Shown here one piece after another: positions 9,576 to 56,862 of a stretch of DNA of 64,000 bases. Every line of letters begins with the position of its first letter. Positions within the stretch are counted from its first letter, which is position 1. The notes under the pieces are model-generated. The model saw only the letters and a list, made by a program, of their open reading frames with translations, was not told where the DNA came from and did no database searches. The DNA is from Nemertoderma westbladi (Eukaryota; Animalia; Xenacoelomorpha). The DNA lies in assembly GCA_032718475.1 (NCBI GenBank), contig JAUCBJ010008647.1:26939-90938 (forward strand), given 5' to 3'. The position numbers and the translations under genes are program-made.

Positions 9576-10136
9576 TGTTAGCTTATTCAATTCCGCTAAC
9601 ACCCCACAAAGTAAGCCGTTAAGCAATATTGGGAGCACGAGGTTGATTACCCAACCTCGTGCCACCCCGACAAAGTGGGAAGGAGAAACGCACAATAGGG
9701 GTCAGGGGCCATACCCCTGACAGAGAGAGAATAGCAGGAGTGAGGGGAAACACTCCAAAGGGCGCCAACAGGGATATTAGCCAATGGGGGAAGGCACCGG
9801 CTAGGTAGTGTAACGACGGCCAAACCGTGCAATATATATTATTAGGTACCATGTTACTGTAATCAGTTATCTCATTGTATTAGTCGGTTAGCTAGGGTAG
9901 AGCGGAGACTTCTAAGACCGTCCTCGCCTACCACCATTTTATCTGTACATACTGTAATAACTCTTTGTATTTCAACCATCTATACTGTATCCATTTTATA
10001 CTGTACCCATTACATTATACATATATCGGAGAATCAATAACATCAGAACTCTTAGACTCTTTTCACATTCACACGGCGGGGACGCGTACTTATAATAACC
10101 GCGGATAAACCGGGATCCTCCTTGGATCCCGTCACA
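9576..10136 (+). repeat. 5' LTR of BEL copy 1 (561 bp, TG...CA)
   Basis: TGTTAGC...GGATCCCGTCACA ends match the LTR ends of copies 2 and 3; TATA-like AATATATATT near 9831. Confidence 0.92.
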
Positions 10137-12026
10137 GTCTTAGAATTCCAGCCAGCTACCGATCTAAAGTAAAAGATGAGCGACGTAACGCCAACGCGGA
10201 CCCCGGACGAAGAACTAACGATCCGCGAGGCCGCGACCAGACGGTATAGGCCTACGACGCCGGACCCATCGGAAACGGGTCATCCGGCAGTTCAGGATGA
10301 GGGGGGCCATCTGGAGCCAGAAGTCGAGTCGAGAGGAGGGGGAGTCGAGTTGAGAGAAGGTGAGGGCGAGTTGGAAGGAGAAAGAGACGAGTCGACACAC
10401 GACGACGGTCGACATGCCAATGTCGCCGGCCAGCCACAGGCCGAGGGCGACGGACGGCCCACCGGGACAGCAACGGTGGGGCCGCCGGTACGACGTCGGA
10501 CCCGGAGAGATGGAGGAGAGGTCGGCGACGAGGACGTCGGGGTTTCTGATCGACTTCGATGGGCCTACAACGCGACCCGGAAGATACTTAAGGAGGCCAA
10601 GGAGGGGGCGAGGATAGACGAGGTAAAGTTGACAAAAGGACTAGGTGAGTCGGATAAACATTTTAGTTATCTAATGCGCTTCGGGCAGAGAGAACTGGCC
10701 AAGGAGAGAGTGAGAGGGGTTGCCGAGGAACTGTGTGATTTATGGCGGTGTAGGGGTATGCAACCTAGCGTAGTGTACATAGGGCCATACTTAGTCGATG
10801 CCCGGGGTATAAAATTAGTGGGTTGGAGGAGACCTGAGGAGGGCGAATCCGAGGTTAACCCCGAGGATTCGGTCTCATCGGTCGGAGGGAATTCCAGTTC
10901 CGGGAGGCGGGGGAGAGTTAGTAGGACGGGAAGGTGGAGGGAATCCGTCACAACCGATAAGTCTGCTACATCCTCCGTAAAAGGAAGACGGGTGAGGGAA
11001 ATAAACGCGGTGTACCATCTCGATCTGATAGCGCAGGGCCAGAGAGAGGTAGAGAGACAGTTAGAGGAGGGGAAAGCGCTATTAGAGAAAGAGATGGAAC
11101 TGATTAAAGAGACCGGAGAGAGGGCCGAGAGAGCCGCGAGAAGCTTTAGGGAGAGTGAGGAAATAGGGAGGAAGGAACAAGAGGAGCGTGAGGCGAGAGA
11201 GGAAAGTGAGCGTAAAGAGCGCAAGGCTGAACGTAAAGAGCGCGAGGCGAGAGAGGATAAGGAGCGTAGGGAGTGTGAGGCGAGAGAGGAAAGTGAGCGT
11301 AAAGAGCGCAAGGCGGAACGTAAAGAGCGCGAGGCGAGACGAACGGAGAGAATTGAGAGAGAGAAAGAACTGGCCGAACAGAGCGCGCGGGAGAGTCGGG
11401 AAATGATAGCAGACGGGAGGCGTATGCGGGATGGTTTACATGCCCGCCTAGGGGGGTTAATTCAGTACCAAACCAGACAGCAGCGCATACTGAAATTGGC
11501 GCGATTGGGGTTGTCAGAGAGTGAGGCTGGGTCGAGTGCTTTCGAGGAGCCAAGGGCCGAGGAAACATTTATTAATACCCCACTTACAGGAACCGCACGA
11601 CAGACCCGAGACTGGTGTAACCGTACGGGCGGGGGGGGGGGGGGGGGGGGGGGTAATAATAATACAACAGTAGACGACGTTAATATTAATAGTACCGTAT
11701 TGGATAACTCTAACCAAACTTTTATTGCAGGAAATATTTTACCTAGTAGTAGTAATTTAAATTTAAATCCGAATGATTCTAATATTAATGTAGGAAATAA
11801 TTATAATATTAATGTAGTTACGCAAAATAATCCAAATAATCTAAATAATAATCTGAATTCGAATTTACAAGATAATTCAAGTAACGCAATTGCGCAAAAT
11901 AATTCGAATAACTTTATTTTGAATGAACAAAATAATTCCGTTTCTAATTTGGGTGCACAAAATAATTTAACTGGGGTGGAGGATTTAATTGATTTAACCA
12001 ATAACGGTACCTGTGGTGCTATTAAT
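9576..12026 (+). mobile_element. BEL/Pao LTR retrotransposon copy 1: 5' LTR plus gag N-terminus, 3'-truncated
   Basis: Starts TGTTAGC; LTR and gag are homologous to copy 3 (38624-36280, minus); sequence switches back to satellite at 12027. Confidence 0.92.
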
Positions 12027-12044
12027 GTCACCTGTAATAATTAG
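10176..12044 (+). pseudogene. gag: Truncated gag N-terminal region (Glu/Arg coiled coil, Asn-rich tract) that runs into satellite
   Basis: ORF is homologous to the copy-3 ORFs 37657-38007, 36733-37209 and 35637-36755; the last codons are satellite-derived. Confidence 0.85.
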
Positions 12045-18000: not shown

Positions 18001-19625
18001 AATAACAGACAGAAGGACAGTCACCTGTAATAATTAGTAAACAATAACAGACAGGAGGACAGTCACCTGTAATAATTAGTAAACAATAACAGACAGAAGG
18101 ACAGTCACCTGTAATAATTAGTAAACAATAACAGACTGAAGGACAGTCACCTGTAATAATTAGTAAACAATAACAGACAGAAGGACAGTCACCTGTAATA
18201 ATTAGTAAATAATAACAGACAGAAAGACAGTCACCTGTAATAATTAGTAAACAATAACAGACAGAAGGACAGTCACCTGTAATAATTAGTAAACAATAAC
18301 AGACAGAAGGACAGTCACCTGTAATAATTAGTAAACAATAACAGACAGAAGGACAGTCACCTGTAATAATTAGTAAACAATAACAGACAGAAGGACAGTC
18401 ACCTGTAATAATTAGTAAATAATAACAGACAGAAAGACAGTCACCTGTAATAATTAGTAAATAATAACCTATAATTAGTAAACAATAACAGACAGAAGGA
18501 CAGTCACCTGTAATAATTAGTAAATAATAACAGACAGAAGGACAGTCACCTGTAATAATTAGTAAACAATAACCTACAGAAGTACAGTCACCTCGCCTGT
18601 AATAATTAGTAAACAATAACAGACAGAAGGACAGTCACCTGTAATAATTAGTAAATAATAACAGACAGAAAGACAGTCCCTGTAATAATTAGTAAACAAT
18701 AACAGATAGAAGGACAGTCACCTGTAATAATTAGTAAACAATAACAGACAGAAGGACAGTCACCTGTAATAATTAGTAAATAATAACTGACAGAAAGACA
18801 GTCACCTGTAATAATTAGTAAACAATAACAGATAGAGGGACAGTCACCTGTAATAATTAGTAAACAATAACAGACAGAAGGACAGTCACCTGTAATAATT
18901 AGTAAATAATAACTGACAGAAAGACAGTCACCTGTAATAATTAGTAAACAATAACAGATAGAGGGACAGTCACCTGTAATAATTAGTAAACAATAACAGA
19001 CAGAAGGACAGTCACCTGTAATAATTAGTAAACAATAACAGACAGAAGGACAGTCACCTGTAATAATTAGTAAACAATAACCTACAGAAGTACAGTCACC
19101 TCGCCTGTAATAATTAGTAAACAATAACAGACAGAAGGACAGTCACCTGTAATAATTAGTAAATAATAACAGACAGAAAGACAGTCCCTGTAATAATTAG
19201 TAAACAATAACAGATAGAAGGACAGTCACCTGTAATAATTAGTAAACAATAACAGATAGAAGGACAGTCACCTGTAATAATTAGTAAATAATAACAGATA
19301 GAAGGACAGTCACCTGTAATAATTAGTAAACAACAACAGACAGAAGGACAGTCACCTGTAATAATTAGTAAATAATAACAGACAGAAAGACAGTCACCTG
19401 TAATAATTAGTAAACAATAACAGACAGAAGGACAGTCACCTGTAATAATTAGTAAATAATAACGTACAGAAGGACAGTCACCTGTAATAATTAGTAAATA
19501 ATAATAGACAGAAGGACAGTCACCTGTAATAATTAGTAAACAATAACCTATAATTAGTAAACAATAACAGACAGAAAGACAGTCTCCTGTAATAATTAGT
19601 AAACAATAACAGACAGAAGGACAGT
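12027..19625. repeat. 42-bp satellite, block 2, containing a 3116-bp higher-order tandem duplication
   Basis: Same unit; near-identical variant patterns are offset by 3116 bp (ORF pairs 13259/16375, 14583/17699, 15532/18648). Confidence 0.97.
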
Positions 19626-20153
19626 TGTGAGTGTATTCAATTCTGCCTCACCAACCCCCATAAAGTGGGCCAGCGAGACCCTTAAGCAATATTGGGAGCA
19701 CGAGGTTGATTACCAATCAACCTTGTATCACCCCAATAAGTGGGGCAACAATAGGCCCCAAGAGGACACACACACAATGGGGGTCAGAGGTTACACCTCC
19801 GGGAGGGAGAGAGAGACAGCAGCGGGGGGAAGTACACCCAGGGAGATGGGAAGGTGACAAGTGAGTTATTAGCCAATGGGGGGAAGGCATCGGCTGAGTA
19901 GTGTAATGCGGCCAACCGGTGCAATATATTACCATGTCGGTGTATCATTCATTCACTTGTAGTAAGTCAGTTAGTTAGGACGGTACCGGAACTCTAATTA
20001 CTGTGACGGGATCCACGGAGGATCCCGGTTTATCCGGTTTCTAATCTACGCGTCCCCGCCGTGTGTGTGAAAGGTAGAAAGAGTTATTGATCGGTGTATA
20101 TAGTTCCAAAGGTATAATAGTATATGATAATGGTTGTTATAATATAAGTGTAC
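19626..20153 (+). repeat. 5' LTR of copy 2 with its 3' 152 bp inverted (20002-20153)
   Basis: 19626-20001 matches 24359-24734; 20002-20153 is the reverse complement of 24784-24935. Confidence 0.93.
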
Positions 20154-22939
20154 CGGCAGACTGCAGGACATACTGTAGGCCTTACTGCACATACTATTAT
20201 AGGCCATGCTGGGAGAGATAGAGTAGGCGATAGGGTAGTGCGAACGACGGGATTAAACCCGGAAGTCGCGGAGTACATACCGGTAGGTAGGCAAGAAGTG
20301 GGTAGGCCTATATCGGTACAGCAGCATGACTATAATACACAGGGACATAACATATATCCAGGGAAGGGGAGAGTTATTGCTGATAGATGTATGGGCCCCA
20401 ATATATTAACATCAACCCCAGTACCAAACATTCCGGTGGGGGGGGGGGGGGGGGGACAGGGTGACATTCCCCCATTCCAATATCAACAATATACTCGAAC
20501 AGCAACGAGAACACCTAACCCCCTGGACGAGAACAGGTCTTGCGACACGGAAATATGGAGGGGGCCGTTACCCCCAATGATATATCCGACGCAACAAGTT
20601 AGATCAACAGCAGATAGGACGAACGGATCGCACCCAACGGCAGAATCTGTACAGCATCCATCGAACCCATTGGAAGCACAGGCGATGGGAATGGCGACGC
20701 TAATCGATGCATTAAAGACCAGGATCGAGTTACCACCAGTCGAGCCATTTAAATTCGATGGAAGTAGGCCGGAAGAATACCTGCAGTTTCGGCGCATGTA
20801 CAGTAACGAGATATTAAGTAAGAACTTGATGCAGGTGGAGTGCCTAAAATATCTACAGGTGTATACAGGAGGCCCAGCATACGACATCGTGAGGCAGTAC
20901 CAGAGCATCGAGGGCGGCTTCACGACAGCATGGCGGGCGCTAGACAGGGAATACGGACACCCGGCCAAGATCATCCGGCAAACCCTGAGAGGTATAACAT
21001 CGGGTGGCCTACAGGACAACCCCGTTAGCATAAAGACCTTTGCGAACAAGGTCGAGAAGGCGTTAATCGTGTTAAAGACGCTAGACGCGCCATACGAACT
21101 CAACGCATCTAATAACATCACCACAATAGCGCAGGCACTGCCGATCTGGCTGCGGAGCAAGTGGAGGAAGATCGCCTTCTCCACTCGAGAGAAGAAAGGT
21201 GCGGAGCCGGGGCTGGAGGAAATGTCAAACTTCCTCAACTACGAAGCCGAGTTGATAACAGACCCAGTCTATAGTGAGGATAGTTTGGGGAAGGCGCCAA
21301 AGACCGAATACAACAGGCCTGGACCCGAACATAATCCGACAGATCCATTCTCGAGAGTAAGACAGTCGCTACCACACGCGGCCACACAGGGGGCTACAAG
21401 CCCACAGTTAGCTGGGAGTAGGGCCACACCGTGGCAGGGACAGAAAGAAAATAACACCATAAATAAACATAATCCCAATATACCCAGTAGGCCGAGTACA
21501 GATAACCAAAACACTAAATCGGTAGATATAAACCTACGCGCAATACGTGAAGGACTATATAGGGAACGCTATAATCCAGGATTCAAATTTCAATTACATC
21601 GGGACGGAACCCATAAGACCATGAGTTCTAAGCACTGGCAAGCGTTGCCCAAACAAGATCGTATAGCCTACACAGACGCAAATGGACTATGTCATCGATG
21701 TGTGGTAGAAGGACACAGATCCGGAGAGTGTAGAGAAACAGCGACAGGAGATAACGAGACTGGAGGCCAAACAATGGCTACAAGCACGACAGTGGCAAGA
21801 AAGAAGAGAAAAGTACTACTCGGGGTAGTACTGGTGAAGATATCAGGAGAGGGCGGTCGATCAGTAACGACATTAATGCTGGTCGACAGCGGAGCAGCCT
21901 TCACGCTGGTGGAGAACTGGGTGGCCGAAGAGATAGGGCTAAAGACGAGGCCGAATAGAATGGCGGTAACCACCGTCTCAAGTAAGGATGAGGTCCTGGA
22001 GATGAGGACGGGACGGTGCAGGATATCAGCGATTGCACCGGGATGCAACTATGGGGCGACGATCGACCCCATCCATGTGATAGAATCGATAAACATCAAC
22101 GCCAGGCGACCAACCAACATCGAAGTCGAACAATATACAGTACATTCCTGGACGGTATCGATTTCTCAATACCAGAGGTGGACGTTAGGAAGGTATCCAT
22201 TATAGTAGGAATGGACTGCCCGACGGCCCACGAGAGAACAAAGACGGTCTTCGGCGAAGACAGGCAGCGGGACCCGACGGCGATCCTCACGCCGTTCGGA
22301 TGGACGCTTAGCGGCCCAGTTAAAACCAAGATTCCATCCAGAGTGACGGAGACATCAGGGTGCATGTTACCAGGCACCGTAGACACGGAGGTTGAAGAGG
22401 AGAAACAGGAGATAGTAGAGCCAGACAGGGAAGTAACAGTAAGAGAGTGGGCGGAGGAGAATGGATTTCCCAGCAAGTATCGGTATGGAGATGGAGAGGA
22501 GTGGACGGCGAGATGTCCGGAGGAGTGTCCGGTGGAGTGTCAGGAGGACAATAGTCCAGAGCAGTGTCTAGAGGAGTGTCCAGAGGAGTGTCCGGAAGAG
22601 ACGCCGGTCCGGTTGAGAGGCATACCGACAAGGGGGAGCTCGAGTAGGAAGACAGGATGGAAAGGGATAGGACTATTGTTGTACCTTCTGTTTTGCCTGT
22701 TCTTTCACTTTCTATTCATTCTGCCGCCGGGAGATAACAAGGTGGGAGGTGGCATTTTGATGCCAGGAGACGAGAAAGTTAAGAAGGCGGTGGAGAGACC
22801 CGATTTCAGGGTGGCAGAAGAGAGAGAACCAATTCCTGGTGAGTTGGAATTGGTGGAGAGAGTGTGGCAAAGAATAAGAGGACGTATAAAGGAGGCAGTG
22901 GGAGAGTGCCTACTGGAAAAAGGGGCACTTCAGAGTTAA
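20148..22939 (+). pseudogene. gag core + aspartic protease, frameshifted near 22140; the pol position holds an acidic/Cys-rich and hydrophobic segment
   Basis: FKFDGSRPEEYLQF gag motif, CHRC..GH...C knuckle, LVDSGAAFT protease motif, TPFGWTLSG; ORFs 20148-22205 and 22016-22939. Confidence 0.85.
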
Positions 22940-23169
22940 GTCGTCCAATATTTTGGACTGAGGGGGGTGGGAATGAGGGCGAGACGCCCTTCCCACACAA
23001 ATAATTATTTAATTAAAATAAATAACAAAATAATTAAATAATAAGATAAGTAGAAGGTAGAAAGTAATAGTTAGAAGAGATAGTAAGTAGTAGCAAGGAG
23101 TAGTAGAAAGTAGTAGTAGAGTGTTAGAAGGTGGCAGGGTAAGGGAGTGTGGTATATTAACATGCCACG

Positions 23170-23810
23170 AGTAGTAGCAGAGGGGTTGTGGGCACCGGAA
23201 GCGCCACGTAGAAAGTAGTAAGAGAGGGGTTGTGGGCACCGGAAGCGCCACATAGAAAGTAGTAAGAGAGGGGTTGTGGGCACCGTAAGTGCCACGTAGA
23301 AAGTAGTAAGAGAGGGGTTGTGGGCACCGGAAGCGCCATGTAGAAAGTGGTAGCAGAGAGTGGTTGTGGGCACCGCAAGCGCCACATAGATAGAGGTAGT
23401 AGAGTAGTAGAGAGGGCACATAGGGTGCCAGGTAGTAGAGTAGTAGAGAGGGCACATAGAGTGCCAGGTAGTAGAGTAGTAGAGAGGGCACATAGGGTGC
23501 CAGGTAGTAGAGTAGTAGAGATTGGCACATAGGGTGCCAGGTAGTAGAGTTAGAGGTAGTAGAGTAGTAAAGAGGGCACATAGGGTGCCAGGTAGTAGAG
23601 TAGTAGAGAGGGCACATAGGGTGCCAGGTAGTAGAGTAGTAGAGACGGGCACATAGGGTGCCAGATAGTAGAGTGGTTGTGGGCACCGCAAGCGCCATGT
23701 AGATGGAGGAAGTAGTAGTAGAGTGGTTGTGGGCACCGCAAGCGCCACGTAGATGGAGGTAGTAAGCAGAGTGGTTGTGGGCACCGCAAGCGCCACGTAG
23801 AAACTAGTAA
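23170..23810 (+). repeat. Internal tandem arrays (44-bp and 36-bp units) in the 3' region of copy 2
   Basis: GGGCACC recurs at 23190, 23234 and 23278; GGGCACA recurs at 23414 and 23450. Confidence 0.9.
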
Positions 23811-24358
23811 GTAGAGTTAGAGTTAGTAGAGAGTTAGAGGGTTTTAGTTAGAGCTAGTAGAGTTAGAGTTAGTAGAGAGTTGGAGAGTTCTAGTAGAGTT
23901 AGGAGTTAGTTAGAGTTAGAGAAGTTAGATAGTTAGATAGTTAGCAAGTTAGACCTTAGATAAGGTAGATAGTATGATAGCACAGGGGTAGCATTAGAGA
24001 TTAGGGCCTTAGGGAGTGGCAGAGAGTAGAGAGGAGTATGGAGAGGAGCTGCTGGCGAGAGGCAGAGCAGGCGAGTGCGATTCAGGTGTGGGGAGAGAGT
24101 AAGAGCGGAGTTAGAGCGGAGTTAGAGTGGTGAGAGTGTTGGGGAAACAAAAGTTGTGTGAAAGAAGCGCACGATCGGCCCGACACGAGACGCCAGAGGG
24201 TAGTGACATCATACCCATAGGGAGCAGCCTGGAAAGCCGACTCCAAGAAAAAATAACTCCACCCCACACCCGATAATAGATCGAGTTCCAGCGGAATTGA
24301 AGCGCACTTAGAGGTTGATGCTATCTTCTCTCCGGGAAGATAGCATGGGGGGGGGGAG

Positions 24359-24935
24359 TGTGAGCGTATTAAATTCCGCCTCACCAACCCCCATAAAGTG
24401 GGCCAGCGAGACCCTTAAGCAATATTGGGAGCACGAGGTTGATTACCAATAAACCTTGTATCACCCCAATAAGTGGGGCAACAATAGGCCCCAAGAGGAC
24501 ACACACACAATGGGGGTCAGAGGTTACACCTCCGGGAGGGAGAGAGAGACAGCAGCGGGGGGAAGTACACCCAGGGAGATGGGAAGGTGACAAGTGAGTT
24601 ATTAGCCAATGGGGGGAAGGCATCGGCTGATTAGTGTAATGCGGCCAACCGGTGCAATATATTACCATGTCGGTGTATCATTCATTCACTTGTAGTAAGT
24701 CAGTTAGTTAGGACGGTACCGGAACTCTAATTACCGTCACCGTCATTCCTGTCATCTGCCAATAGTACATATATCATTTACCAGTACACTTATATTATAA
24801 CAACCATTATCATATACTATTATACCTTTGGAACTATATACACCGATCAATAACTCTTTCTACCTTTCACACACACGGCGGGGACGCGTAGATTAGAAAC
24901 CGGATAAACCGGGATCCTCCGTGGATCCCGTCACA
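24359..24935 (+). repeat. 3' LTR of BEL copy 2 (577 bp)
   Basis: Follows the PPT; TGTGAGC...GTCACA; followed by the TSD. Confidence 0.95.
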
Positions 24936-25100
24936 ACAGTCACCTGTAATAATTAGTAAACAATAACCTATAATTAGTAAACAATAACAGACAGAAAGAC
25001 AGTCTCCTGTAATAATTAGTAAACAATAACAGACAGGACAGTCACCTGTAATAATTAGTAAACAATAACAGACAGAAGGACAGTCACCTGTAATAATTAG
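24936..25100. repeat. 42-bp satellite, short block between BEL copies 2 and 3
   Basis: About 4 units visible. Confidence 0.95.
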
Positions 25101-25692
25101 TGTGACGGGATCTGCGGAGGATCCTGGTTTATCCGGTTTTTGGTTCCTAGTTTACGCGTCCCCACCGTGCGTGAAAGATATAAAGAGTTCTGGGTTGTTG
25201 ATCAATCGATGTATATAAGTTCGGGATATAATATAATAGAGATAATAGCACAAATGGTTGATGTATGATGTAATGTACCGGTAGGTGATATGTACTGGTG
25301 ACGGGGGGCGGAGACGGTAACTAGACCTAACTGTAACTAACGGTACTGTCCTAACTAGCTGACTTACTACAAGTGAATGAAATATTGCATGGACCGGTAA
25401 TATATTGCACAGTTGGCCATATTGCTCTACCCAGTCGATGCTTCCCCCCAATTGGCTAATATCCTAATTGTCGCCCCTTTACCTTCCCTGGAGTGTTTCC
25501 CGTTACTCCTGTTATTCCCTCTCTCTCTCAGGGGTGTAACCTCTGACCCCTTTGTGCGTATGTCCTCCGGGGTTTCCTTGTCCCCACTTTATTGGGGTGG
25601 TACGAGGTTGATATTGGATATCAACCTCGTGTTCCCAATATTGCTTAAAGCTCACTTTATGGGGCTGGTTAGTGGAATTGAATACGCTAACA
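25101..25692 (-). repeat. 3' LTR of BEL copy 3 (592 bp)
   Basis: Direct repeat of 38044-38624; adjoins the PPT. Confidence 0.95.
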
Positions 25693-26399
25693 CTCCCCCC
25701 CATGCTATCTTCCCGGTAAGAAGATAGCATCCACCTCTAGTGCGCTACAATTCCACTGGATCTCGACCTAGTATCGAGTGTGGGATGGAACTATTTTTAT
25801 TTTTTTCAGAGCCAGTTTTCCAGACCGCCCCCTATGGGTATGATATTGCTACCCTGTCTACCTGGCGTCCCGTGTTGGGCCGATCATGCGCTCCTTTCAC
25901 ACGACTTTTGTTTCCCCAACACTTTCGCCACTCTAACTCCACTCTATTCTCACCCTGACTCTCGCTACTTCTCCTCACCTCCGCTCTAACTTTCGGACTT
26001 CCCTGTCCCTCACTCGCCCTCTTGTTCCTCCCCCCCCACACTTGAGTCGCACTTGCACTCTCTCCGCACTTCGCACTATCGCTCCATCGCTCGACCCCTC
26101 CTTGGCTAACTCACTCATCTCTGACGAGTCCCATCCCCCTCTCCTGTGCCGTCGCACTCAGGAAATGTGAAGTCGTCTAGTGTCTCGTTCGTCATAGTCA
26201 GTCATCCCCCGGTCCAGTAGCTAATTGGAAAAAGGTTGAGTGACTATAGTACTTACTTCAATTATATTTTGCTAAACTAATAATGATTACTACGTACGTA
26301 CCTACTAATTGCACTTTTCAATTGTTTAAATTACTTAAATTTATACTTAGGAGTTCGCACGTCTCGCGTGGTGCCTTCCAGGCATATTACTCCGAAGTC

Positions 26400-28573
26400 C
26401 TAGTTCGTTCCACCAGCCTTTGGGAACCACCTCAAGTCTTTCCCTTTGTCTTCCCCCTCCCTGGGTCGTTTCCTGGTCACTGCCGCTCCTCTGGTCTTGT
26501 CTGCTTTCTGGCTTCTGACTCTCGCCGCCACCTCCTTGCTGATCCCGGTCGTCGACTCCTTGGGTGCCGGTGTTATTAGCTCCCGGTATCGCTTCGCGGG
26601 TGGCCCCTCCGAGTGGCCCTGTTGTCTCCCCCTGATGGCGTCCCATAGGATCATCTTCATTGCCCGCGGCACATGCTCCGCCAAGAAATCCCTAAACTCT
26701 CCTCTACTCTGTGGCGTCCACCTATACAAATACCTCTGCGTATTTATCACTCCGGCATATGATGCCGCCGTCGCCACTTTCTGGTAGGTAAACGGAAGCC
26801 TCCGTTTGATAATCTCCATGTGAGCCTCCTGATTGATGTTAAAGAAGCCCCACCGGAACTCCTGGGCCTTCATACGTTGCCGAGTCATCGCCCCGACGTC
26901 GGCCCATTCCTCGAAGATCCTAAACTTCTCTTCGTCGTCCATCCAGTCGCACTGGCGTCCGTAATGTCCCCGAAAGTTACACTTCGAACATCGGTTATGC
27001 AACCGTGGTCACGCCCCCATCCTGTGGCTCGACTCACGGCAATAGAGACAACTAGTCCCTTTCTGGACCCGGTACAAACAGCTCCTTTCCTGATGGGTCT
27101 GTCTCCCACAGTAATCACAGCTGAGCACCAATGTCTCCCGCCCTACGTCGTCTTTCGTCCCAAGCGATCTCCGTGGTCTGTGGAGTCGCTGATAAGCAAA
27201 CTTCCGGACGTTAGCGTCCCTATCTACGTCGATCTCCTCGCCCCTCTCGGGCATCGTCTCCCCGAATACTACCCTAGAGACTCCCCCGAACTCCCTGATG
27301 AAGTCCAACGAAGTTCGTCCAAGCCCGCTTGTTCCTCGAAGCCGTAGCTCTGTGCCCTAGCTTCCTCCTCCCTTTCTTCTGCTTCTCTCCTTTCCCGTCT
27401 GGCGACTTCTTCCAGTCGCTTCGCCTCTCGCCTATCCGTCTCTAGCTGCTCCCATCTCTGACACGGCGTATCCACCTCCCCGTCTACCAGATGTCGGCTG
27501 TTATAGTACACCGACTCGCCCTTCAGCCCCGGGTGGTCTACCAGACCCTCGAAAGCCGTCTTAAAGGCTCTTCTGTAGTTTAGGGGTGATCCCGATAATA
27601 GGAATGCCGTTGGTTCCCTCTCAATAATCACGGTCATGAATAGGTTAAGCAAACCTATCATTATCCAGTCCTCCTGTAGGATATATCGCTTCTGATATAC
27701 CTTTATAGCTCCTCTCCGGAATTGATACACCTCTTGTCTCCCTGGCCTCGCTCCCCACTTCAGTGAGTTCGCCAAGTCTGCTCCGTACTCCTCTCTGAAC
27801 TTGCCCCAGTCCATCAGTTTGTGACACATGAGCCCCATTAACTGGCCCATCGCCACTGCCCCGCAATGTCCTGTGGTCTCTATTAGTCCCAATCCGTCCG
27901 GCGCTGTCATAGCCATGTACACCGTCTGCGTATCCAGAAGGTTGGGGGTGTCCGGACCGATGATCCTCTCCGCGTCGTCGCGAATCGCCGATCCCACTTT
28001 TGTCCTCGACTTCTCTCTCACTAGTACTTGCACTGCCTTCGGCAGCCGGTTTAACTTCGGCCCATCCTTCTTTCCATACGTTCCTAGATCGAATAGGAAT
28101 ATGTCCCCATTTGGCACAGCCAAATGTAGGAGTATGGTTCTGGCTGACGCCGCCGATCCTCTCCTCGAACCCTCCTCGTCTTCCATGGTCCCCTCATCGT
28201 CCAGGACCATATACCCTTCTCTGCTGACGGACTCTACGAACCTCTTCCAATCCTTCCTCGGTGGATCCCTTGCGTACTTCGGAATCCCGAACTTCGCTTC
28301 GTCTCCTTTTATCACGTAGTGGAAATGCTCGAAGATCGCGTTGTCCAGCGACAGCGTCCCGTAGGTCCCGACCAGCCACTGTTCGTGCACCTCCCTGAAA
28401 TGGTCCTGTAGCGCTCGCGCTGCGTGACCCCTCTCTAACCGTTCGTAGTATCCCCTCGTTCTCTCTTCCGGATGCCTCTTGGTGAAATCCACCAGTATCT
28501 CCTTTCCTCCTAGCTCCGCCTTTCTCTTTCGCACAAGTTTGCTTGCCATCTCGAACTTTACCCGATCGCTCAC
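26400..28573 (-). pseudogene. Extra ORF3: DEDDy 3'-5' exonuclease (WRN/EXD2-like) + coiled coil + three CCHC knuckles; one frameshift (about 27310-27340) and one in-frame TGA (27009-27011)
   Basis: Motifs VLDDEG, LLHLAVPNGDIFLFDL, LPKAVQVLV..TKVGSAIRDD, LLDTQ and YQKRYILQED; knuckles CDYCGRQTHQERSC, CLYCRESSHRMGA* and CSKCNFRGHYGRQC. Motif recognition by eye. Confidence 0.75.
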
Positions 28574-29049
28574 CCGTTGGGTGGTGCCTTACCAAGGCGC
28601 AGTAGGGTGAGTGATAGGTTAAGGTGGTTTATCTCAGTTCGATGGCCTATCTCCCTCTGGATTACTAAGTTAATTAGCCTATTTCCACTGCTTGATTTCT
28701 GTAGCTACCAAATTGTACCTAAATTGTGAATTTTGTCAGTTACTTTTATTATGTTCCAGAATTTTCTTGCTGCTGTTACCATAATTTGTCAATTTCTTAG
28801 CTCTATCCTATTTTGGTATTTTTAATCTAATTCAATCCTACCATTGTGCTGTTACTTACTATTGCCTATGGATTATTCTATTTCATAATCCACATTCTGG
28901 CCTACTCTGTGGGCTTGTGCAGTACAACAGTATGCGTCGCGCGGCCTACACGATTTATCCAGCTGTACTCATATGCCCCCTCTCGCTACTAACTACTAAC
29001 TAATGTCTATACTATATATATATATCCCTCTACCTCTTACTCTTACAAA

Positions 29050-29560
29050 CCGGTACTACGTACCCTCTTACTAACTTCTAACTCTCTCTAACTAACTAAC
29101 TAATCGGTACTGCGTACCCTCTTACTAACCTCTAACTCCACTAACTAACTAATCGGTACTACGTACCCTCTTACTAACCTCTAACTCCCTTAACTAACTA
29201 ACGGTACTACGTACCCTCTTACCAACCTCTTACTTTCTCCAACTAACTAACGGTACTATGTACCCTCTTACCAACCTCTAACTCTCTCCAACTAACTAAC
29301 GGTACTATGTACCCTCTTACCAACCTCTAACTCTCTCCAACTAACTAATGGTACTACGTACCCTCTTACTAAACTCCAACTTCTGCCTACTGATGGTACT
29401 ACGTACCCTCTTACTAACTAACTTCTGCCTACTGATGGTACTACGTACCCTCTTACTAACTAACTTCTGCCTACTGACGGTACTACGTACCTTCTTACTA
29501 ACTAACTTCTGCCTACTGACGGTACTACGTACCCTCTTACTAACTAACTTCTATCTACTG
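29050..29560 (-). repeat. Internal tandem array (about 42-45 bp units) between pol and ORF3 of copy 3
   Basis: Repeated GGTACTACGTACCCTCTTACTAAC. Confidence 0.9.
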
Positions 29561-29687
29561 ACTTTCGCTTCTTATTATTTTTTATTTTATTTTTATTTTT
29601 ATTGTGTAGGAAGGGCGTCTCGCCCTCAATCCCACCCCCCTCAGTCCAAAACTTGGACGACTAAACTACACTAAAAACCACACTAGT

Positions 29688-32600
29688 TCAAGGTGCCCCC
29701 TCTAGTAGACAGCATTTTCCTACAGCCCTCCTGTAGGTCTTTCTGTCTTTTGCACCTATCTTTCCACCTATTCGCACTTCTACCGATCGGACTCTTCCAT
29801 CCTCATCGGAGTAAGTGCCCACAACTCTCGCCAACCGCCATTGGTTGTTGATGATGGTATCATCCGTGACGATCACCAGATCACCCTCCTTTAGCTCTCT
29901 GTTCGTGTTCCTCCACTTACTTCTTCTGTGTAATGTGGGCAGATATTCCTCGACCCACCTCCTCCAGTATTCTGCGCTTATCGCCTTAGCGACTTTCCAA
30001 CTCTGGCGGGAGTGTATGTCGTCTGGGTCTACACCCCGCATGTCGACTGTCGCCGGCCTCTCCATTAGAAAGTGACTGGGCGTCAGCACGTCTAATGACT
30101 CAGGGTCATCATTCTCTGGATATAGCGGTCTGCTATTAATGATACCCTCACACTTTGCCAGTACTGTCCTTAGTACGTCCTCTGTAACCATGTGGGTGTT
30201 CATCAGCTTCGTCATCAGACGTTTCGAACTACCCAATAATCTCTCGACGCATCCTAGGGTATGCGGAGCATACGGCGTCCTCCTCTCCCACTTTACTTGT
30301 CGCCTTCTCATGGCCGCCCTGACTTCCTCCCCTTCCAGGATATCCAAGGCCTCCGCCATCTCGTTCTCCGCCCCCACAAAGTTGGTCCCGCTGTCAGAAT
30401 ACAGTACTGCGATTGTCCCACCTTTGCGGTCTCTAAATCTTTCTAAAGCATTAATGAATGCTGATGCGGTTGCATCTTGGGCGAGTTCTATTCCTACCGC
30501 CCGCGTGTTGTTACATACGAAGATGATACCATAGCGTTTCTCCGTGTGCCGCATCACCTTAATCTTTATCGGCCCGAACATATCCACACTGCAATGCGTA
30601 AATGGCGGGTCGTGCTGTCTTACTCTACTGGCCGGTAGTGGCGCCATTTCCTGTATGGCCCGTTCCTTCTTCTCCCGTCGGCAGCTCTGGCACTGCCCCA
30701 CTACCGCCTTTACCTTCTTCCTCAACTGTTTGACCCAAAAGGTCCTTCTTATCTCCGTGAGGGTTCGGTTGGTGCCCCCGTGCAATATCGATTTGTGGGA
30801 GTCCCAGATAATCTGGTGGACTATCGGCGATCCTGTGGGAATGATGATGGGCTTCGGTGGTACGACGATACTGTTGTTGTATCCCACCCTAGAGTTCATT
30901 ACTAGGATCCCGTCGTCATTAAGTTGTGGTGACAGCGTGATCAGCTCGCTGTCCCGCCGGAGATGCTGTTGCTTACCAACGCGTTCCACCTCGTCGCCAT
31001 AGTTCTTCCTCTGCTCGTAGTGGATGACTGCTTTGGCCGCTCCTTCCAGGTCTATTGTCGTTCTAATCTTCACGTCTTTACCAACTCCCCTGAGGAAATT
31101 CCCGAAGGCTCTCCAGTATGCCACTAACTTCTTGGTCTTGTACCAACTAGAACTGTAGCTAAGGAGTTTATCCGTCGGGTTATCGCACAGTTCTCCTGGT
31201 TTTGGTTGCACGTCCCTTATCTCCCTCACCATCTGGGAGTATATCTCCTCTCCCTCTGAATCTCCCTCTTCTCCTTCTGACACTACTTCTCCTGAGCCCG
31301 GGTCCACCTTTCTCATCGGCGGCCAGGCCTCCCTATCGCTCAGAAACTGTGGCCCGTGTTGCCACAATACTTCCTTCTTCAAGAAAGTGTGGCGTACCAC
31401 GCCCCTCGATAACAATTCCGCTGGGATCTCGTCCGTTGGGCAGTAGTGCCACCTTTCCAGTTTTGTGGTCGCCCTTATTTCGTCCACTCTATTCGCGACG
31501 AATATAGGGTATCTCGTCCTTTCGTTGTGTAGCCAACCGAGCACTACCATGGAATCCGTCCAGTAGTGTGTTTCCACTATGTTGGGAATAGCGTCCACTA
31601 AGTAGGGTATGGCCCTAACTCCTAATCTCGCAGCTGTCAACTCGAGTTTCGGAACTGATGCTGAGTCTGGTGGCGTCGACTTCGCTTTACTGAATGCGAG
31701 TCTGGGCTTGTGAGCCCCCTCTCGTTGTACTAAGTAGAGTGCCGCTCCATATGCCTCTAATGACGCATCGGAGAACATATGTAGATCCAGATTCGTCTCC
31801 CCATCCGGGAAATATACACGCGGCATGCTGTATGTTCCCATCTGCTCTAAACTCTCTGTCCACTTGTTCCACTGCTTACTAATCTCTTCTGGGACCTCTG
31901 CGTCCCACTCGTCCTTTAATTTGTATACTCTCTTGAGTATCTGTTTCCCCGTGACTAGTAATGGGGATGCTAGGCCTAGGGGATCGTATATCCTCGCTAT
32001 ATATGACACATAGCCCCTCTTTGTGTGGATACCTGCTCCCTCCTGACTCAATTGGTATTTTAACTCATCTGTCTCTCTGTTCCACACGATTCCCAGTGCC
32101 TTCTGTTGAGACTCTATCCTCTTGTTCGCCATGTCCTGCCCCTTGGCTGTTGTGGGATTATCCATGGTCGATCCTGGTCTCTCGTCTTTTATTGCCTCGA
32201 TAAATTCCTTCGAACTGGATTGGAATTTGGTTAGGTTGAAGCTGGATCCTTTAAGGATGTCGCGAACCTCGCGCCCTGTGTCCAGTAGCTCCTTAACCGT
32301 ATTTCCAGACTCCATCCCGTTGTCTACGTAGAAGCCGCGTCGAATCATATCGACGGCTTTGGCGCTGAACTTATCTTCCTTCCCTGCTACCGTATCTCTT
32401 ACGGCCATAGTCGTTGTAAACGAAGACGACTTGGCTCCCATATTCTGTAATACCATCTTATACATTGGTATGGTCGACGGTTCCTCATCGCCGTCGTACC
32501 ATAGGAAGCGTTGGCTGTCGCTATCCTCTCCCGTTACACGGACTTGGTTGAACATGCCTTCAATGTCGCAGGTGAAAGCGTGTTTGCCATTCCTGAATCT

Positions 32601-33545
32601 GAGTAGGACCTCGATCCCTGAGTTGTAGATGTTGGGACCCTCCAGCAGATAATCGTTTAGGCATTTCCCGTTGGTCTTGGCTGATGCGTCAACTGCCATC
32701 CGCAGTTTACCTTTCTTCGGGTCTATAGCCACGTGGAGTGGCAGGTAATAGGTCCTGTCCGTGTTTGGCTCGTCGACCGGTAACTCCACGGCCCATCCTT
32801 TCTCGACATACTTTCTAATTGTCTTCTGGATGTACTCATTCTTCTCGGGGCTCCGTTTTAACGTCTGCTTTAACTTGCGAAGCCTCGTAAGTACCATCCC
32901 TTTGTTGTCGGGTAACGGTAGCTTTGGTAGCTTCCATACCATCCCTATGGTATACCGCCCCTCATCGCATGTCATCGATTCCTTTACACTTTGTAAAGCC
33001 TGCTTGTCTTCTACCGAGGTTCCGACCCCGGTCTCCTTTAATCCCTCAAAATCCTGCCTGAGCAGTCTCCTGAGTTGCTCCCCTGCTCCCTCATCCTCCA
33101 TCTCTCGCATAGTTCCCGCGAACATGCATCCTGATGTCTCCGACATCCTAAATGGTATCTTACTCTTGATTGGGCCACTCAGTGTCCACCCGAATGGTGT
33201 CAATATCGCCACCGGGTCACATTGCCTGTCTTCGCCGAAGACCGTTTGCATTCTCTAGTGGGCCGTTGGGCAGTCCATTCCTACTATGATGGATACCTTT
33301 CTAACGTCCACCTCTGGGATTGAGAAGTCGATACTGTCCAGGAATCTGTATTGTTCGACCTCGATGTTGGTTGGCCGTCTGGCGTTAATATTTATCGACT
33401 CTATCACCTGGATGGGGTCTATGGTCGCCCCATAATCGCATCCCGGTGCTACCGCTGCTATCATGCACTGTCCGGTTCTCATCTCCAGAACCTCATCTTT
33501 GCTGGAGATGGTTGTTACCGCCATTCTACTTGGCCTCGTTCTCAA
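29688..33545 (-). pseudogene. pol: BEL/Pao pol (RT, RNase H, integrase): 1187-codon open stretch preceded by a premature TAG at 33255-33257
   Basis: YYLPLH, LNDYLLEGP, DIEGMFNQV, FYVDN, SDAS, HGG..C..C zinc finger, DDE core. Confidence 0.95.
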
Positions 33546-36500
33546 TCCCGTCCGGTTCTCATCTCCAGAACCTCATCTTTGCTGGAGATGGTTGTTACCG
33601 CCATTCTACTTGGCCTCGTTCTCAATCCTATCTCTTCGGCCACCCAATCCTCAACTAAGGTGAAGGCTGCACCACTGTCGACCAGCATGAGTGTGGTTAC
33701 TGATCGGTTGCCTTCGCCGATTATCCTTACTGGTACTACCCCTAATAGTACCGTCCCTCTCTTCTTTGCTACTTCGGTGCTTGTTGCCATTGTTTGTCCT
33801 TTACTCTGACCGAACTTAGTTGGCGTTTCTCTGCATTGTCTAGCTCTGTGTCCACTCATCACGCATCGCAAGCAGATGTCATTTCTCGCCGCGTATTCTA
33901 CCTGATCTTCCCTGGGTAGCGCCTGCCAGTACCTGCAGTTCATGGTCTGATGAAGCGCATTTGAATGTAGCTGACATTTGCTCTTTGGATCGTAGCCATC
34001 CTTATACAGTGCATTGCGTATCGCAGATGCATTTGTACCAAAGTCCTTACTGTTCTTATTGTTTAAATTCTGCCTACTGGGCGTACTGGGGGTATGTTTA
34101 TTTGTGTTGTTATTTTTCCCCTGTCCGCTCCATGATGTGGACTTACCCTCGGCTACCTGTGGACTTGCAGTCCTCTGCGTCGCTGCGTATGGCAGTGATT
34201 GCCTGAGCTTTGGTAATGCGTTTGACGTGTTATGTTCTGGTTTCGGCCTGTGGTAATCGGTCTTTGATCCCTTTCCCAGGCTATCCTCGCTGTATACTGG
34301 GTCCGTTATAAGTTCAGCTTCATAGTTTAAGAAGCTTGACATCTCTTCTAAACCCGGTTCCGCACCCTTCCTATCTCGAGTGGAGAAAGCGATTTTCCTC
34401 CACTTATTGCGCAGCCACATCGGAAGTGCCTGGGCTATCGTTATGATGTTGTTGGACGCGTATGGCGCATCCAATGTCTTTAGCACGATTAGCGCCTTCT
34501 CGACTTTGTTAGCGAATGTCTTTATGCTAACGGGGTTATCCTGTAGGCCACCCGATGTTATACCTCTCAGGGTCTGCCGGATGATCTTGGCCGTGTGCTC
34601 GTATTCCCTGTCTAACGCCCGCCATGCCGTCGTGAAGCCACCCTCGATACCCTGGTATTGCCTCACGATGTTGTATGCTGGGCCCCCTGTATATACTTGC
34701 AAATACTTTAGGCACTCCGCCTGCGTCAAATTCTTTGTTAATATTTTGTTACTATACATGCGCCGAAACTGTAGGTATTCTTCCGGTCTACTCCCATCGA
34801 ATTTGAATGGTTCCACGGGTGGTAACTCGATCCTTGTTTTTAGTGCATCGATTAATGTGGCCATCCCCACCGCTTGCGCTTCCAATGGGTTCGATGGGTG
34901 CTGCATAGGTTCTCCCGTTGGGTGCGGTCCGTTCGTCCTGTTTGCCGCTTTCCTCTGACTTGGATATATCATAGGGGGTAGCGGCCCCCTCCATATTTCT
35001 GTGTCACATGATCTATTCTCGTCCAAGGGGTTCGATGTTCTTACTCCTACTGGGGTATATTGTTGATATTGTGATGGGGGAATGTCACCCTGCCCCCCCC
35101 CCCCCCCCCCACTGGTATATTTGGTACTGGGGTTGATGTTAATATATTGGAGCCCATGCATCTATCCGCAATAATCCCCCCTTCCCCTGGGTATATGTTA
35201 TGTCCTTGCATGCTGTAGCCATACTGCTGTGCTGGTACCGGTATAGGCCTATCTACTTCTGGTCTCCTTGCCGGTATATACTCCGCGACTTCCGGGTTTA
35301 ATCCCGCTGTTCGCGCTATCCTATCGCCTATATTATCTCTCTCAGCATAGCCTATGGTATGTGCAGTAAGGCCTACAGTATGTCCTGCAGTCTGTATGTG
35401 TCGCTCGGGATCGAAGTTTATCCTTCTCGAATAATCCTCCCCGCGCCCACCGCATTCTCGATCGGTAGGTATATCCCGTCGGGAAGCTTCTCTTCGACCC
35501 CCTCTACTGCTCTCGCTCTCGTGCCGGTACATCCCGTACCCCTCTCTCTGTGCGCAATACGCCTCGTCAGGTCGCACTCCTCCGGGGCGACGGCAATCTC
35601 CCGAAGTTCGACCCTGCTGACTCTCCGTCTCCACCTCTACCACCGACGGCTCGCTATCCGTCCTCGCTCTCCTGTCGTTCGTGGCGACACTTCTTCCACT
35701 CTCTTCCCTTCTTCTCTCTGTAGTGCAGTATTCCCGCTCGTGAGATCTCTCGTCGACCTCCCGGTTAAACTCCACTGTTCTTCTTCCCTCTTCTGATCAG
35801 GCTCGACGCTTCGTCCGCCCTCTCGCGACGTCAACCTGTCTCTCTCTGCTCGATTGCATGCCGCTGGGGATACTCGCAATCCCCCTATCACTCTCCGTCG
35901 CCGGGTGTTGCGGTTTACCTGTCTCAGCCCGCGCATTATCCGTCGACGTCTGTGGGGCACTCTCTGCCCCCCACTTTTCGCCGCTAACTCGCTGTTGTGG
36001 GGCTCCTGTAGCCCCCCCCCCCCCCACTCGCCACATCTAACTTCACTATCTCTCACCCCGCTACTATATCCCTCTCTAGCCGACACATCAACCCTACTGC
36101 GGCTGGGTCCATTCACCCCCGCCTCTCCCTCTGCTATTGTGTGGCCTACCAGGCCCTCTACTTTCTGCCTACTAATTACGTGGCCTACCAGGCCCTCTCC
36201 GGGTTGGCTCAACCCCGCCACTTCCAGCCCACTAACTAAGTGGCCTACCAGGCCCTCGTCTGCCGGGTTATACACGTCCAACACATTCACGTTAATAGCA
36301 CCACTAATATTGTCATTGGTTAGATCAATTAAATCCTCTAACTCGATTAAGTTACCTTGTGCGCCCAAATTAGAAACGGAATTATTTTGCTCGTTCGAAA
36401 TAAGATTATTTGAATTATTTTGTAAATTCAGACTTATATTTAAATTATTTGAATTATTTTGTAAATTCGGACTTAGATTATTTATTTTCTTTTGATTATT

Positions 36501-38007
36501 TTCTACATTAATATTAGAATCACTAGGATTTAAATTACTACTGTCGGGCAAAATATTATTTCCTGCAATGAAAGTTTGATTAGAATTATCTAGTACAGTA
36601 CTATTAATATTAACGTTGTCTACTGTATCATTATTATTACCCCCCCCCCCCACCCGTACAGTTACACCAGTCTCGGGTCTGTCGTGCGGTCCCTGTAAGT
36701 GGGGTATTAATAAATGTTTCTTCGACCCTCGGCTAAGCACTCGAGCCAGCGTCACTCTCTGACAGCCCCATCTGGGCCATTTTTAGTCTGCGCTTCTGTC
36801 TGGTTTGGTACTGAATGAGCCCCCCTAGGCGGGCATGTAAACCATCCCGCACACGCTTCCCCTCTGCTGCTCTTTCCCGACTCTCCCGCGTGCTCTGCTC
36901 GGCCAAATCCCTCGCTCTCTCAACTCTCTCCATTCGTTTCGCCTCCCTTGCCACCTCACGCTCTTTAAGTTCTGCCTCGCGCTCTTTTCGTTCAGCCTCG
37001 CGCTCTTTGCGTTCACACTCCTCTCTCGCCTCACGCTCTTCTCGTTCCTTCCTCCCTATTTCCTCACACTCCCTAAAGCTTCTTGCGGCTTTCTCGGCCC
37101 TCTCTCCGGTCTCTCTAGCCAGTTCCATTTCTTTCTCTAATAGCACTCCCCCTCCTCTAACTGTCTCTCTACTTCTCTCTGGTCTTGCGCTATCAGATCG
37201 AGATAACACGCCGCATTTATTTCCCTCACCCGTCTTTCTTTTACGGAGGATGTAGCAGACTTATCGGTTGTGACGGATTCCCTCCGCCTTCCCGTCCTAC
37301 TAACCCCCCCCCCTTTTTCCGGAACTTTTTCCGACCGACGAGACCGAATCCTCGGGGTTAACCTCGGATTCGCCCTCCTGCGGTTTCCTCCAACCCACTA
37401 ATTTTATTCCCCGGGCATCGACTAAGTATGGCCCTACGTACACTACGCTAGGTTCCATACCCCTACATTCCCATAGTTCAAACAGTTCGGTGGCAACCCC
37501 TCTCGCTCTCTCGCTGGCTAGTTCTCCCTGCCCAAAACGTTTTAGATAGTCAAAGTGTTCGTTCGACTCACCTAGTCTTTTCTTTAGGTTTACCTCGTCT
37601 ATCTTCGCCCCTCCTTTGGCCTCTCTCAGCTGCTTCCGGGTTGCGGCGTAGGCCCGTCAAAGCCGGTCGCTGACCCCGACGTCCTCGTCGCCGACATCTG
37701 CTCTATCTCTCCGGGTCCGGCGTCGTACCGGTGGCCCCACCGTCGCCGTTCCGGTGGGCCGTCCGTCGCCCTCGGCCTGTGGCTGGCCGGCGACACTGGC
37801 ACGTCGACCGCCGTCGTGTGTCGACTCGTCTCTCTCTCCTCCCGACTCGTCCTCCAGTTGTAGACGGCTCCCCTCGCGTTGGATCACCGGGTCACCCGTT
37901 GGCGATGGGTCCGGTGTCGTGGGCCTATACCGTCGTGTCGCGGCCTCGCGGATCGTTAGATCGCCGTCCGGGGTCCGCGTCGGTGTCGTCTCTCCTATTC
38001 GGTTCAT
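33542..38007 (-). pseudogene. gag: Long gag + protease of copy 3, broken by frameshifts, stops and an 80-bp duplication
   Basis: ORF pieces 37657-38007, 36733-37209, 35637-36755, 35047-35775 and 33542-35161; C..H/C..C knuckles; LVDSGA. Confidence 0.9.
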
Positions 38008-38043
38008 CGTAGCGTAGTCAGGCAGTAGTTGCTATCTAGTTAC

Positions 38044-38624
38044 TGTGACGGGATCTGCGGAGGATCCCGGTTTATCCGGTTTTTGGTTCCTAGTTTACGC
38101 GTCCCCACCGTGCGTGAAAGATATAAAGAGTTCTGGGTTGTTGATCAATCGATGTATATAAGTTCGGGATATAATATAATAGAGATAATAGCACAAATGG
38201 TTGATGTATGATGTAATGTACCGGTAGGTGATATGTACTGGTGACGGTAGGCGGAGACAGTAACTAGAGTTCCGCTACTGTCCTAACTAGCTGACTTACT
38301 ACAAGTGAATGAAATATTGCATGGACCGGTAATATATTGCACAGTTGGCCATATTGCTCTACCCAGTCGATGCTTCCCCGCTATTGGCTAATATCCTAAT
38401 TGTCGCCCCTTTACCTTCCCTGGAGTGTTTCCCATTACTCCTGTTATTCCCTCTCTCTCTCAGGGGTGTAACCTCTGACCCCTTTGTGCGTATGTCCTCC
38501 GGGGTTTCCTTGTCCCCACTTTATTGGGGTGGTACGAGGTTGATATTGGATATCAACCTCGTGTTCCCAATATTGCTTAAAGCTCACTTTATGGGGCTGG
38601 TTAGCGGAATTGAATACGCTAACA
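38044..38624 (-). repeat. 5' LTR of BEL copy 3 (581 bp)
   Basis: Direct repeat of 25101-25692; gag ATG lies 37 bp downstream on the minus strand. Confidence 0.95.
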
Positions 38625-49240: not shown

Positions 49241-49561
49241 CAAATTTGTAATTACATAATTGTAACTAGATGAGGGTCTTTATTGCATATGCGTTTTACA
49301 AATTGTTCATTAAAACTTACTAATTGTGGTGATAATATATGCCTCGCCCCACGGATATCCTGGGACGAGAGGGGAGAGACCTACCGGTGTTGGACAGTCA
49401 GTATGGCGGTGTTAGTCAGTCAGTACCACCAGTTTATCTAGGCTACTTACTGCATGCCCTGACCGGTCCTCAGAGGACCCTATTATATATGATCACAGTA
49501 TCTGCTCCAGACAAAGGTTTTGTTCGTCTGCTGCCTCGCAGCAATAGTAGATACACCCACA

Positions 49562-49579: not shown

Positions 49580-49590
49580 AATTTGGGCCC

Positions 49591-56830: not shown

Positions 56831-56862
<32 letters not shown>

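Follow-up and report, generated by a model that had tools for sequence, protein, structure and literature searches.

BEL/Pao elements are metazoan, and the ICTV profile of the Belpaoviridae describes them as elements of 4.2–10 kb with gag, pol and env only and with an 18-nt primer site for tRNA-Arg or tRNA-Gly (PMC8742986). Exonuclease ORFs were reported from other retroelements. In bdelloid rotifers, Juno and Vesta (Ty3/gypsy) and the Athena/Terminon retroelements encode a DEDDy ORF3 of putative function (Rodriguez et al., 2017; PMC5408684), and these ORF3s are also covered in PMC6431247, in the accessible parts of both papers. In the trypanosome enzyme TbRND, four CCHC fingers enhance RNA binding and trimming, according to the available text of PMC7797062. 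Priming of reverse transcription by the element's own RNA is known in Tf1/sushi, Tj1 and Tcn1 (Ty3/gypsy) and in the plant element TAR (copia), as given in the accessible portions of PMC4600332 and PMC6317226.

We analyzed a window (the whole stretch of DNA under study, 64 kb in length) from Nemertoderma westbladi, in which a BEL/Pao element carries two additional ORFs behind pol. A preliminary description of this DNA, made from the sequence alone, mentioned DEDDy ORFs in Gypsy-like and Penelope-like elements of bdelloids, which agrees with what the accessible text of PMC5408684 reports. Below we ask what the two ORFs are, whether they belong to the element family, and how they may relate to the way in which the element primes its reverse transcription.

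The BEL/Pao element and its neighborhood

The element has the following parts:

25101..38624, minus strand: whole BEL/Pao element, 13.5 kb, TG...CA ends, 5-bp target-site duplication at 25096-25100 and 38625-38629, inside a 42-bp satellite array
38044..38624, minus strand: 5' LTR, 581 nt
33542..38031, minus strand: gag/protease region, split over several frames in the 13.5-kb copy
29688..33254, minus strand: pol, with reverse transcriptase (YVDN), RNase H and integrase; 1188 codons from stop to stop
29051..29562, no strand assigned: tandem-repeat spacer, inside the 1138-nt gap between the pol stop and the start of ORF-A
25693..25701, minus strand: polypurine tract
25101..25692, minus strand: 3' LTR, 592 nt

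This 13.5-kb element is a BEL/Pao LTR retrotransposon. Its Pfam domains include Peptidase_A17 (E 2e-40), DUF5641 (E 9e-24) and DUF1759 (E 4e-11), matches that bear out the identity given in the preliminary description; Peptidase_A17, Integrase_H2C2 and DUF5641 are placed in pol and DUF1759 in gag. The Pao-type gag and pol domains in the order PR-RT-RH-IN that define the Belpaoviridae are present, and so are the end features of the family, namely LTRs with TG...CA termini, a target-site duplication and a polypurine tract. Aligned with each other, the 5' and 3' LTRs agree at 571 positions and show 10 mismatches and 11 gap columns. A GC-rich hairpin lies just inside the LTR 3' end (38047-38067 and equivalents) and is conserved in all four complete LTRs. 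The gag protein has a very long N-terminal extension (35637-38031; 10177-12027) that includes an Asn-rich stretch besides a charged coiled-coil repeat, and a fragment at ~62900-63260 holds a charged repeat that resembles the one in this extension. In the protease region an 80-bp tandem duplication (33470-33628) alters the frame in the 13.5-kb copy.

Two relatives of the element are found in the window:

9576..12027, plus strand: truncated, diverged sibling; LTR 9576-10136, with a 9-mer at 9910-9918 that pairs with the 9 nt after the LTR (10137-10145)
19626..24935, plus strand: deleted sibling in which most of pol and both extra ORFs are missing

The deleted sibling has an unrelated open sequence in place of pol (22368-22934) and ~1 kb of tandem repeats in place of the extra-ORF region (23050-23940). 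All three BEL family members sit in a single 42-bp satellite array (1-19625, 24936-25100 and 38625-39470), at differing positions of the repeat unit, and the Gypsy and LINE elements of the window lie outside this satellite. It is possible that insertion of the BEL family is regionally targeted to the satellite; the literature searched held nothing relevant on satellite targeting by this kind of element. Elsewhere in the window, at 47284-58722, inverted arms of ~1.3 kb built of a 53-bp repeat surround a 3.4-kb Gypsy element (49325-52752) and a LINE (53129-56695), and the Gypsy element is itself bordered by the 53-bp repeat.

Two adjacent ORFs behind pol

27269..28549, minus strand: ORF-A, 426 aa when read from its first ATG; putative DEDDy 3'-5' exonuclease, then a charged helix
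27240..27303, minus strand: junction block, with the ORF-A stop (27269-27271), 14 nt and the ORF-B ATG (27252-27254); variant-free among the other copies listed
26400..27254, minus strand: ORF-B, 284 codons from the ATG; three CCHC knuckles; premature stop at 27009-27011 in the 13.5-kb copy
27078-27119, 27009-27050 and 26949-26990, minus strand: the ORF-B knuckles, CX2CX4HX4C

Both extra ORFs are sense-oriented and lie between pol and the 3' LTR, a place that an env gene may occupy, ORF-A starting 1138 nt past the pol stop. Three ORF pieces had been noticed here from the sequence, and they do exist: from stop to stop, in sense with the element, they span 27269-28588, 27009-27356 and 26400-27008; the frame of ORF-B overlaps the end of ORF-A. 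The triple knuckle and the TGA at the last-Cys position of knuckle 2 were seen as well. A six-frame scan of the window gave seven CX2CX4HX4C motifs in total, three of them within 171 nt in the ORF-B frame.

The preliminary description joined the pieces into one protein of ~720 codons, an exonuclease fused to knuckles, by repairing both the TGA and one frameshift, and the two repairs fared differently. Three studies of the same organism contribute five DNA runs that contain the extra region, and four of these runs were analyzed. At the knuckle-2 stop position almost the entire depth has a letter other than that of the 13.5-kb copy, with 105,935 of 106,082 in run X1, 98,121 of 98,376 in X2 and the full depth in X3 and X5. 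Because ~99.7–100% of the depth in each run differs here, the TGA is a lesion private to the 13.5-kb copy. The frame change, in contrast, is common to the other copies. No indel is listed at 3% or more in the junction region 27200-27420 among 853 contig pieces from the four runs, whereas the same variant listing did report indels elsewhere. The junction is tiled by gap-free diverged pieces (27200-27274 and 27272-27404), and one listed junction piece, X2 record 10, includes 5 gap letters. The 64 nt at 27240-27303 are without any listed variant site, for which short contigs may partly account. In the overlap, at 27317-27356, six of nine variant sites fall on third positions of frame A and one of nine on third positions of frame B. 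The family therefore has two adjacent ORFs, the frame change being family-wide and not a lesion, and a single exonuclease–knuckle fusion of ~720 aa is unsupported; nuclease and knuckles are not united in one reading frame as they are in TbRND. The canonical −1 slippery heptamer (X XXY YYZ) is absent from frame A at 27269-27400, and the junction RNA is predicted to fold no more stably than its shuffles (z −0.83), so that canonical −1 frameshifting is unsupported too. ORF-A and ORF-B may be linked by recoding or by splicing, or ORF-B may start at its own ATG.

Whether these ORFs belong to the family can be judged from its other copies. In X1-X3, each of the 30 bins of 25102-29045 has diverged contigs. 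Pieces of up to ~10% divergence span both ORF ends into flanking element sequence (X5 records 26 and 31). Some copies have internal deletions, for example a 1140-nt skip in X1-X3. Between 27200 and 27420, 22 variant sites are listed, and at 27317-27387 third codon positions of ORF-A account for 12 of 16 (p 0.0008), a bias that points to purifying selection on ORF-A. No terminal repeats were found around the extra-ORF segment. The occurrence of the region in many copies together with the third-position bias argues for family cargo and against the one-off nested insertion of which the preliminary description had warned. Judged by this variation, the extra ORFs are a real, selected accessory module of the BEL/Pao family.

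ORF-A and its predicted DEDDy exonuclease fold

27599..28300, minus strand: exonuclease domain as modelled, residues numbered on a 439-codon frame
28199-28201 (D130), 28193-28195 (E132), 27974-27976 (D205), 27683-27685 (Y302) and 27671-27673 (E306), minus strand: residues of ORF-A at the ExoI, ExoII and ExoIII positions

All four exonuclease motifs that had been quoted for this locus are in ORF-A, in the order claimed. In alignments D130 and E132 (ExoI), D205 (ExoII) and Y302 (ExoIII) are in register with the DEDDy family; ExoIII reads Y-x3-E and not Y-x3-D, with Glu306 at Y+4 and an Asp at Y+5. Downstream of the exonuclease domain a long charged helix is predicted.

Direct sequence searches with ORF-A gave no family in Pfam at E up to 1 for the whole ORF or up to 10 for the domain, and the Pfam check that had been suggested for the exonuclease failed, as the PF01612 gathering score was not reached. 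No match was obtained in a sequence search of the PDB, and no relative was found among 7997 scored candidates of near length or among 126 shorter ones. Two bacterial TPR-repeat proteins, matched among 1.84 billion representatives, were rejected as relatives since one short stretch had been matched repeatedly, and of the pattern matches in metagenome contigs (42) and in viral contigs (2) none was confirmed.

More sensitive comparisons point to the DEDDy fold. An ESM Atlas feature search with residues 85-340 returned PF01612 in all 30 named clusters (score 0.93, 173 shared features); the search with the whole protein gave leads only, at 0.84–0.85, one Rotifera-dominated cluster at 0.84 among them. 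For the profiles we used bacterial stand-alone exonucleases, of which WRN and EXD2 are the best solved relatives. Against a profile of 21 bacterial sequences ORF-A scored 7.2 bits (E 0.051) and was the top of 272 window ORFs, the runner-up being a repeat ORF with 6.6 bits and 1001 controls, shuffled or reversed, getting no further than 3.1; with a broader HMM of 22 sequences its 5.4 bits were level with the top score among 1001 such controls. With hhalign, the 22-sequence bacterial WRN/RNase D profile (query left out) was matched with a probability of 50% and E 1.6e-4, which none of 88 shuffles equalled.

The AlphaFold model of ORF-A from the single sequence has a pLDDT of 36.5, and the model built with the bacterial exonuclease alignment one of 66.8. 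The aided model shows the DnaQ-like fold that structure prediction was expected to recover, although this evidence is partly circular because the model was built on an alignment of exonucleases. Its Foldseek matches are Nibbler, Egalitarian, TbRND and EXD1, the best being Aedes Nibbler (E 2e-6), and its structural matches have Z values of 11–12 with an rmsd of 3.5–4.0 Å across 152–185 residues. VIA-align does not separate Nibbler, WRN, RNase D and Rrp6 (Z 11.8–12.4), so that no exonuclease subfamily is singled out. From the "WRN/EXD2/Mut-7-type" assignment of the preliminary description, the DEDDy, WRN-like fold is upheld by the feature search, hhalign and the model, and the subfamily is not. 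With language-model, profile and model-based evidence in agreement, ORF-A very probably has a very divergent fold of the DEDDy 3'-5' exonuclease type.

The primer-binding site and predicted self-priming

38035..38043, minus strand: primer-binding position, 9 nt, no TGG start; complementary to an LTR-internal 9-mer
38260..38268, minus strand: 9-mer of the 5' LTR predicted to act as self-primer; it stops 216 nt short of the LTR end
25317..25325, minus strand: the same 9-mer in the 3' LTR, which would be close to the genomic RNA's 3' end

A TGG directly after the 5' LTR is absent in the main element and in the sibling at 9576, and is present in the Gypsy element of the window. Judged by the missing TGG, both BEL/Pao members lack the tRNA-Arg/Gly primer site that is expected of Belpaoviridae. 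No element-encoded tRNA was found, and Rfam gave no match within 25000-38700. What follows the terminal CA in both members is a stretch of 9 nt that is the exact reverse complement of a 9-mer in the LTR, located 216 nt from the LTR end in the main element and 218 nt from it in the sibling. Shuffled LTRs gave such a 9-nt match by chance in 44 and 68 of 20,000 trials. Two substitutions and a one-base shift set the 9-mers of the two members apart and are mirrored in the pairing partner, and cross pairings between main and sibling sites do not exceed 5 nt, in a covariation comparison that comprises two family members only. In the predicted leader RNAs the pair probabilities of the 9-nt helix are 0.96–1.0 and 0.75–0.90. 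Since the next base is unpairable in both 3' LTRs and in the 5' LTR of the sibling, the helix would end at the LTR border; in the main 5' LTR the pairing crosses that border and takes in 3 nt of the LTR end. Compared with shuffles, an outer stem reaches significance for the main element (1 and 3 of 2000) and not for the sibling (113 of 2000). Two members thus carry the hallmark of Tf1-type priming at the sequence level, namely conserved pairing between the site after the LTR and a segment of the LTR itself, and the family appears to be self-primed via its own LTR.

On visual inspection, the LTR alignment shows a conserved TATA-like motif and, ~27–30 nt further on, an initiator-like motif, which suggest a transcription start 45–60 nt upstream of the 9-mer.

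The deleted sibling bears on the same question. Its 5' LTR (19626-20156) consists of U3-R up to the 9-mer and 155 nt of the LTR end in inverted orientation, and gag follows; the switch falls precisely where the homologous 9-mer ends (20001/20002), and the target duplication is common to both ends of the sibling. Such a junction is to be expected of a primer joined to its own cDNA, or else of a short-repeat inversion, and the sibling may be an aberrant self-primed product.

Possible functions of the module

Primer maturation had already been raised as a role for the exonuclease, and since the family is apparently self-primed this idea gains a specific candidate substrate in the post-LTR site and its LTR complement. 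The reading to which we tentatively give preference is that the exonuclease would trim the element's own RNA into the primer of reverse transcription. The LTR 9-mer, lying ~45–60 nt past the TATA/initiator-like site and not at the first base of the RNA, would pair with the primer-binding site. With the start site upstream of the 9-mer, the primer segment would be internal, and a usable 3' end would need removal of the RNA beyond it. This RNA would be single-stranded, whether it is the 3' end of the genome with its poly(A) tail or a 5' piece produced by a cut, and the exonuclease would degrade it until the duplex halts the enzyme at the LTR border. The knuckle protein, as a separate product or via recoding, may provide RNA binding like the zinc fingers of trypanosome RNase D, and reverse transcriptase would then extend the trimmed RNA end. 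In favor of self-priming, a third family member is rearranged exactly at the 9-mer. Against trimming count the sibling without both ORFs, though it is also without most of pol, the Glu at the fourth acidic position and the weak sequence evidence for the fold. In Tf1 the self-primer is reportedly freed by the element's own RNase H, with no extra nuclease.

A more specific form of this proposal, which we regard as doubtful, is that this BEL/Pao lineage uses its genomic RNA, at the 3' end, as the primer. A captured exonuclease would trim that end to the 9-bp helix at the LTR border, with the knuckle protein as its cofactor, and a conserved signal for recoding or re-initiation would link the two. 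If true, 3'-end priming would be a route distinct both from tRNA priming and from 5'-end self-priming of the Tf1 type, and it would give retroelement DEDDy ORFs their first concrete job.

Another explanation, rather unlikely in our view, is that ORF-A is an active trimmer of host small RNAs, acting on piRNA or siRNA 3' ends in the manner of Nibbler or Mut-7 and blunting silencing, with self-priming as a separate process carried out by RNase H. That Aedes Nibbler is the top Foldseek match despite the bacterial alignment would fit this, and a silencing role for the bdelloid ORFs was raised by Rodriguez et al. (2017) in the accessible text of PMC5408684; yet Nibbler is tied with WRN, RNase D and Rrp6 in the structural comparison. 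It is likewise unlikely that ORF-A, with little or no catalytic activity left, serves to bind RNA through its exonuclease fold, as EXD1 or Egalitarian would, and that together with the knuckle protein it folds, packages or transports the element RNA. The Glu at the fourth acidic position, the presence of EXD1 and Egalitarian among the best structural matches and the long charged helix behind the domain all suggest binding, but the remaining three acidic residues and the Tyr are retained, and the bdelloid ORFs deviate as well (DEED) and were nevertheless judged possibly active in the part of PMC5408684 available to us.

We consider it improbable that ORF-A acts on DNA like WRN, removing an unpaired 3' flap from plus-strand strong-stop DNA where copying has run beyond the 9-nt match and on into a self-primer of greater length. 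In its sequence motifs ORF-A comes nearest to the WRN/EXD2-like group, and a paper in a review's reference list reportedly states in its title that the Tf1 self-primer is not removed; CCHC knuckles point to an RNA substrate, however, and here they adjoin the nuclease. Least likely of all is that the element carries the ORFs as passengers, acquired as a host gene or a nested fragment, which play no part in its cycle, for although the sibling at 19626-24935 is without them and some copies have internal deletions such as the 1140-nt skip, many diverged copies show the third-position bias, diverged contigs join both ORF ends to flanking element sequence, the segment is without terminal repeats, and three large protein searches gave no close host relative.

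Comparison with known systems

The preliminary description knew of no DEDDy cargo in BEL/Pao, and neither an exonuclease ORF nor self-priming in this superfamily was found in the literature searched, which lay outside Repbase Reports, subscription journals and supplements. The word "exonuclease" does not occur in PMC3118150, PMC13524379 and PMC12440569, and the accessible parts of PMC11599104, PMC3601003 and PMC554778 added nothing on BEL. As far as was searched, the exonuclease/knuckle module is new for the BEL/Pao superfamily.

The bdelloid ORF3s come closest. Like ORF-A they are non-env ORFs behind pol, their fold is of the RNase D/WRN type and their acidic tetrad departs from the usual one, in the accessible description of PMC5408684; unlike them, ORF-A resides in a BEL/Pao element, has the tetrad D-E-D-E and not DEED, and is adjacent to a three-knuckle ORF. 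Large protein searches gave no relation of ORF-A to the bdelloid ORFs at the sequence level, and the available text of PMC5408684 reports no link of the bdelloid elements to self-priming. The retroelement DEDDy exonucleases were reported in 2017 with no assigned job, and they are now seen in another LTR superfamily, where such an ORF co-occurs with a specific predicted RNA structure that would require 3' trimming, which makes for a directly testable question. Outside retroelements, Dada DNA transposons also encode a DEDDy exonuclease domain; theirs lies within the transposase and was proposed to process cut DNA ends (PMC3706591, accessible text). TbRND (PMC7797062, in the portion available; PDB 7C42) likewise has a DEDDy domain, with several CCHC fingers downstream of it, and is a structural match at Z 11.3. 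It differs in being a host enzyme with four fingers in a single polypeptide, whereas here nuclease and knuckles are in separate frames, and the similarity between its knuckles and those of ORF-B is not significant (E 0.54). A conserved two-ORF junction is what this BEL/Pao family displays.

With respect to priming, Tf1/sushi, Tj1, Tcn1 and TAR resemble the present family in having no tRNA site and a post-LTR site that complements a segment of their own LTR, as far as the accessible texts on them go. These are gypsy and copia elements whose primer is a 5' segment of the mRNA, while in the BEL/Pao family described here the 9-mer is apparently well inside R and a 3'-5' exonuclease is predicted to be encoded. 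The element shares with the Belpaoviridae of the ICTV profile (PMC8742986) gag, the pol order PR-RT-RH-IN, the LTRs and the polypurine tract, and departs from that profile in its 13.5-kb length, its two other ORFs and the absence of such a tRNA primer site. If self-priming holds true, tRNA-independent priming would extend to BEL/Pao, where the profile assumes a tRNA.
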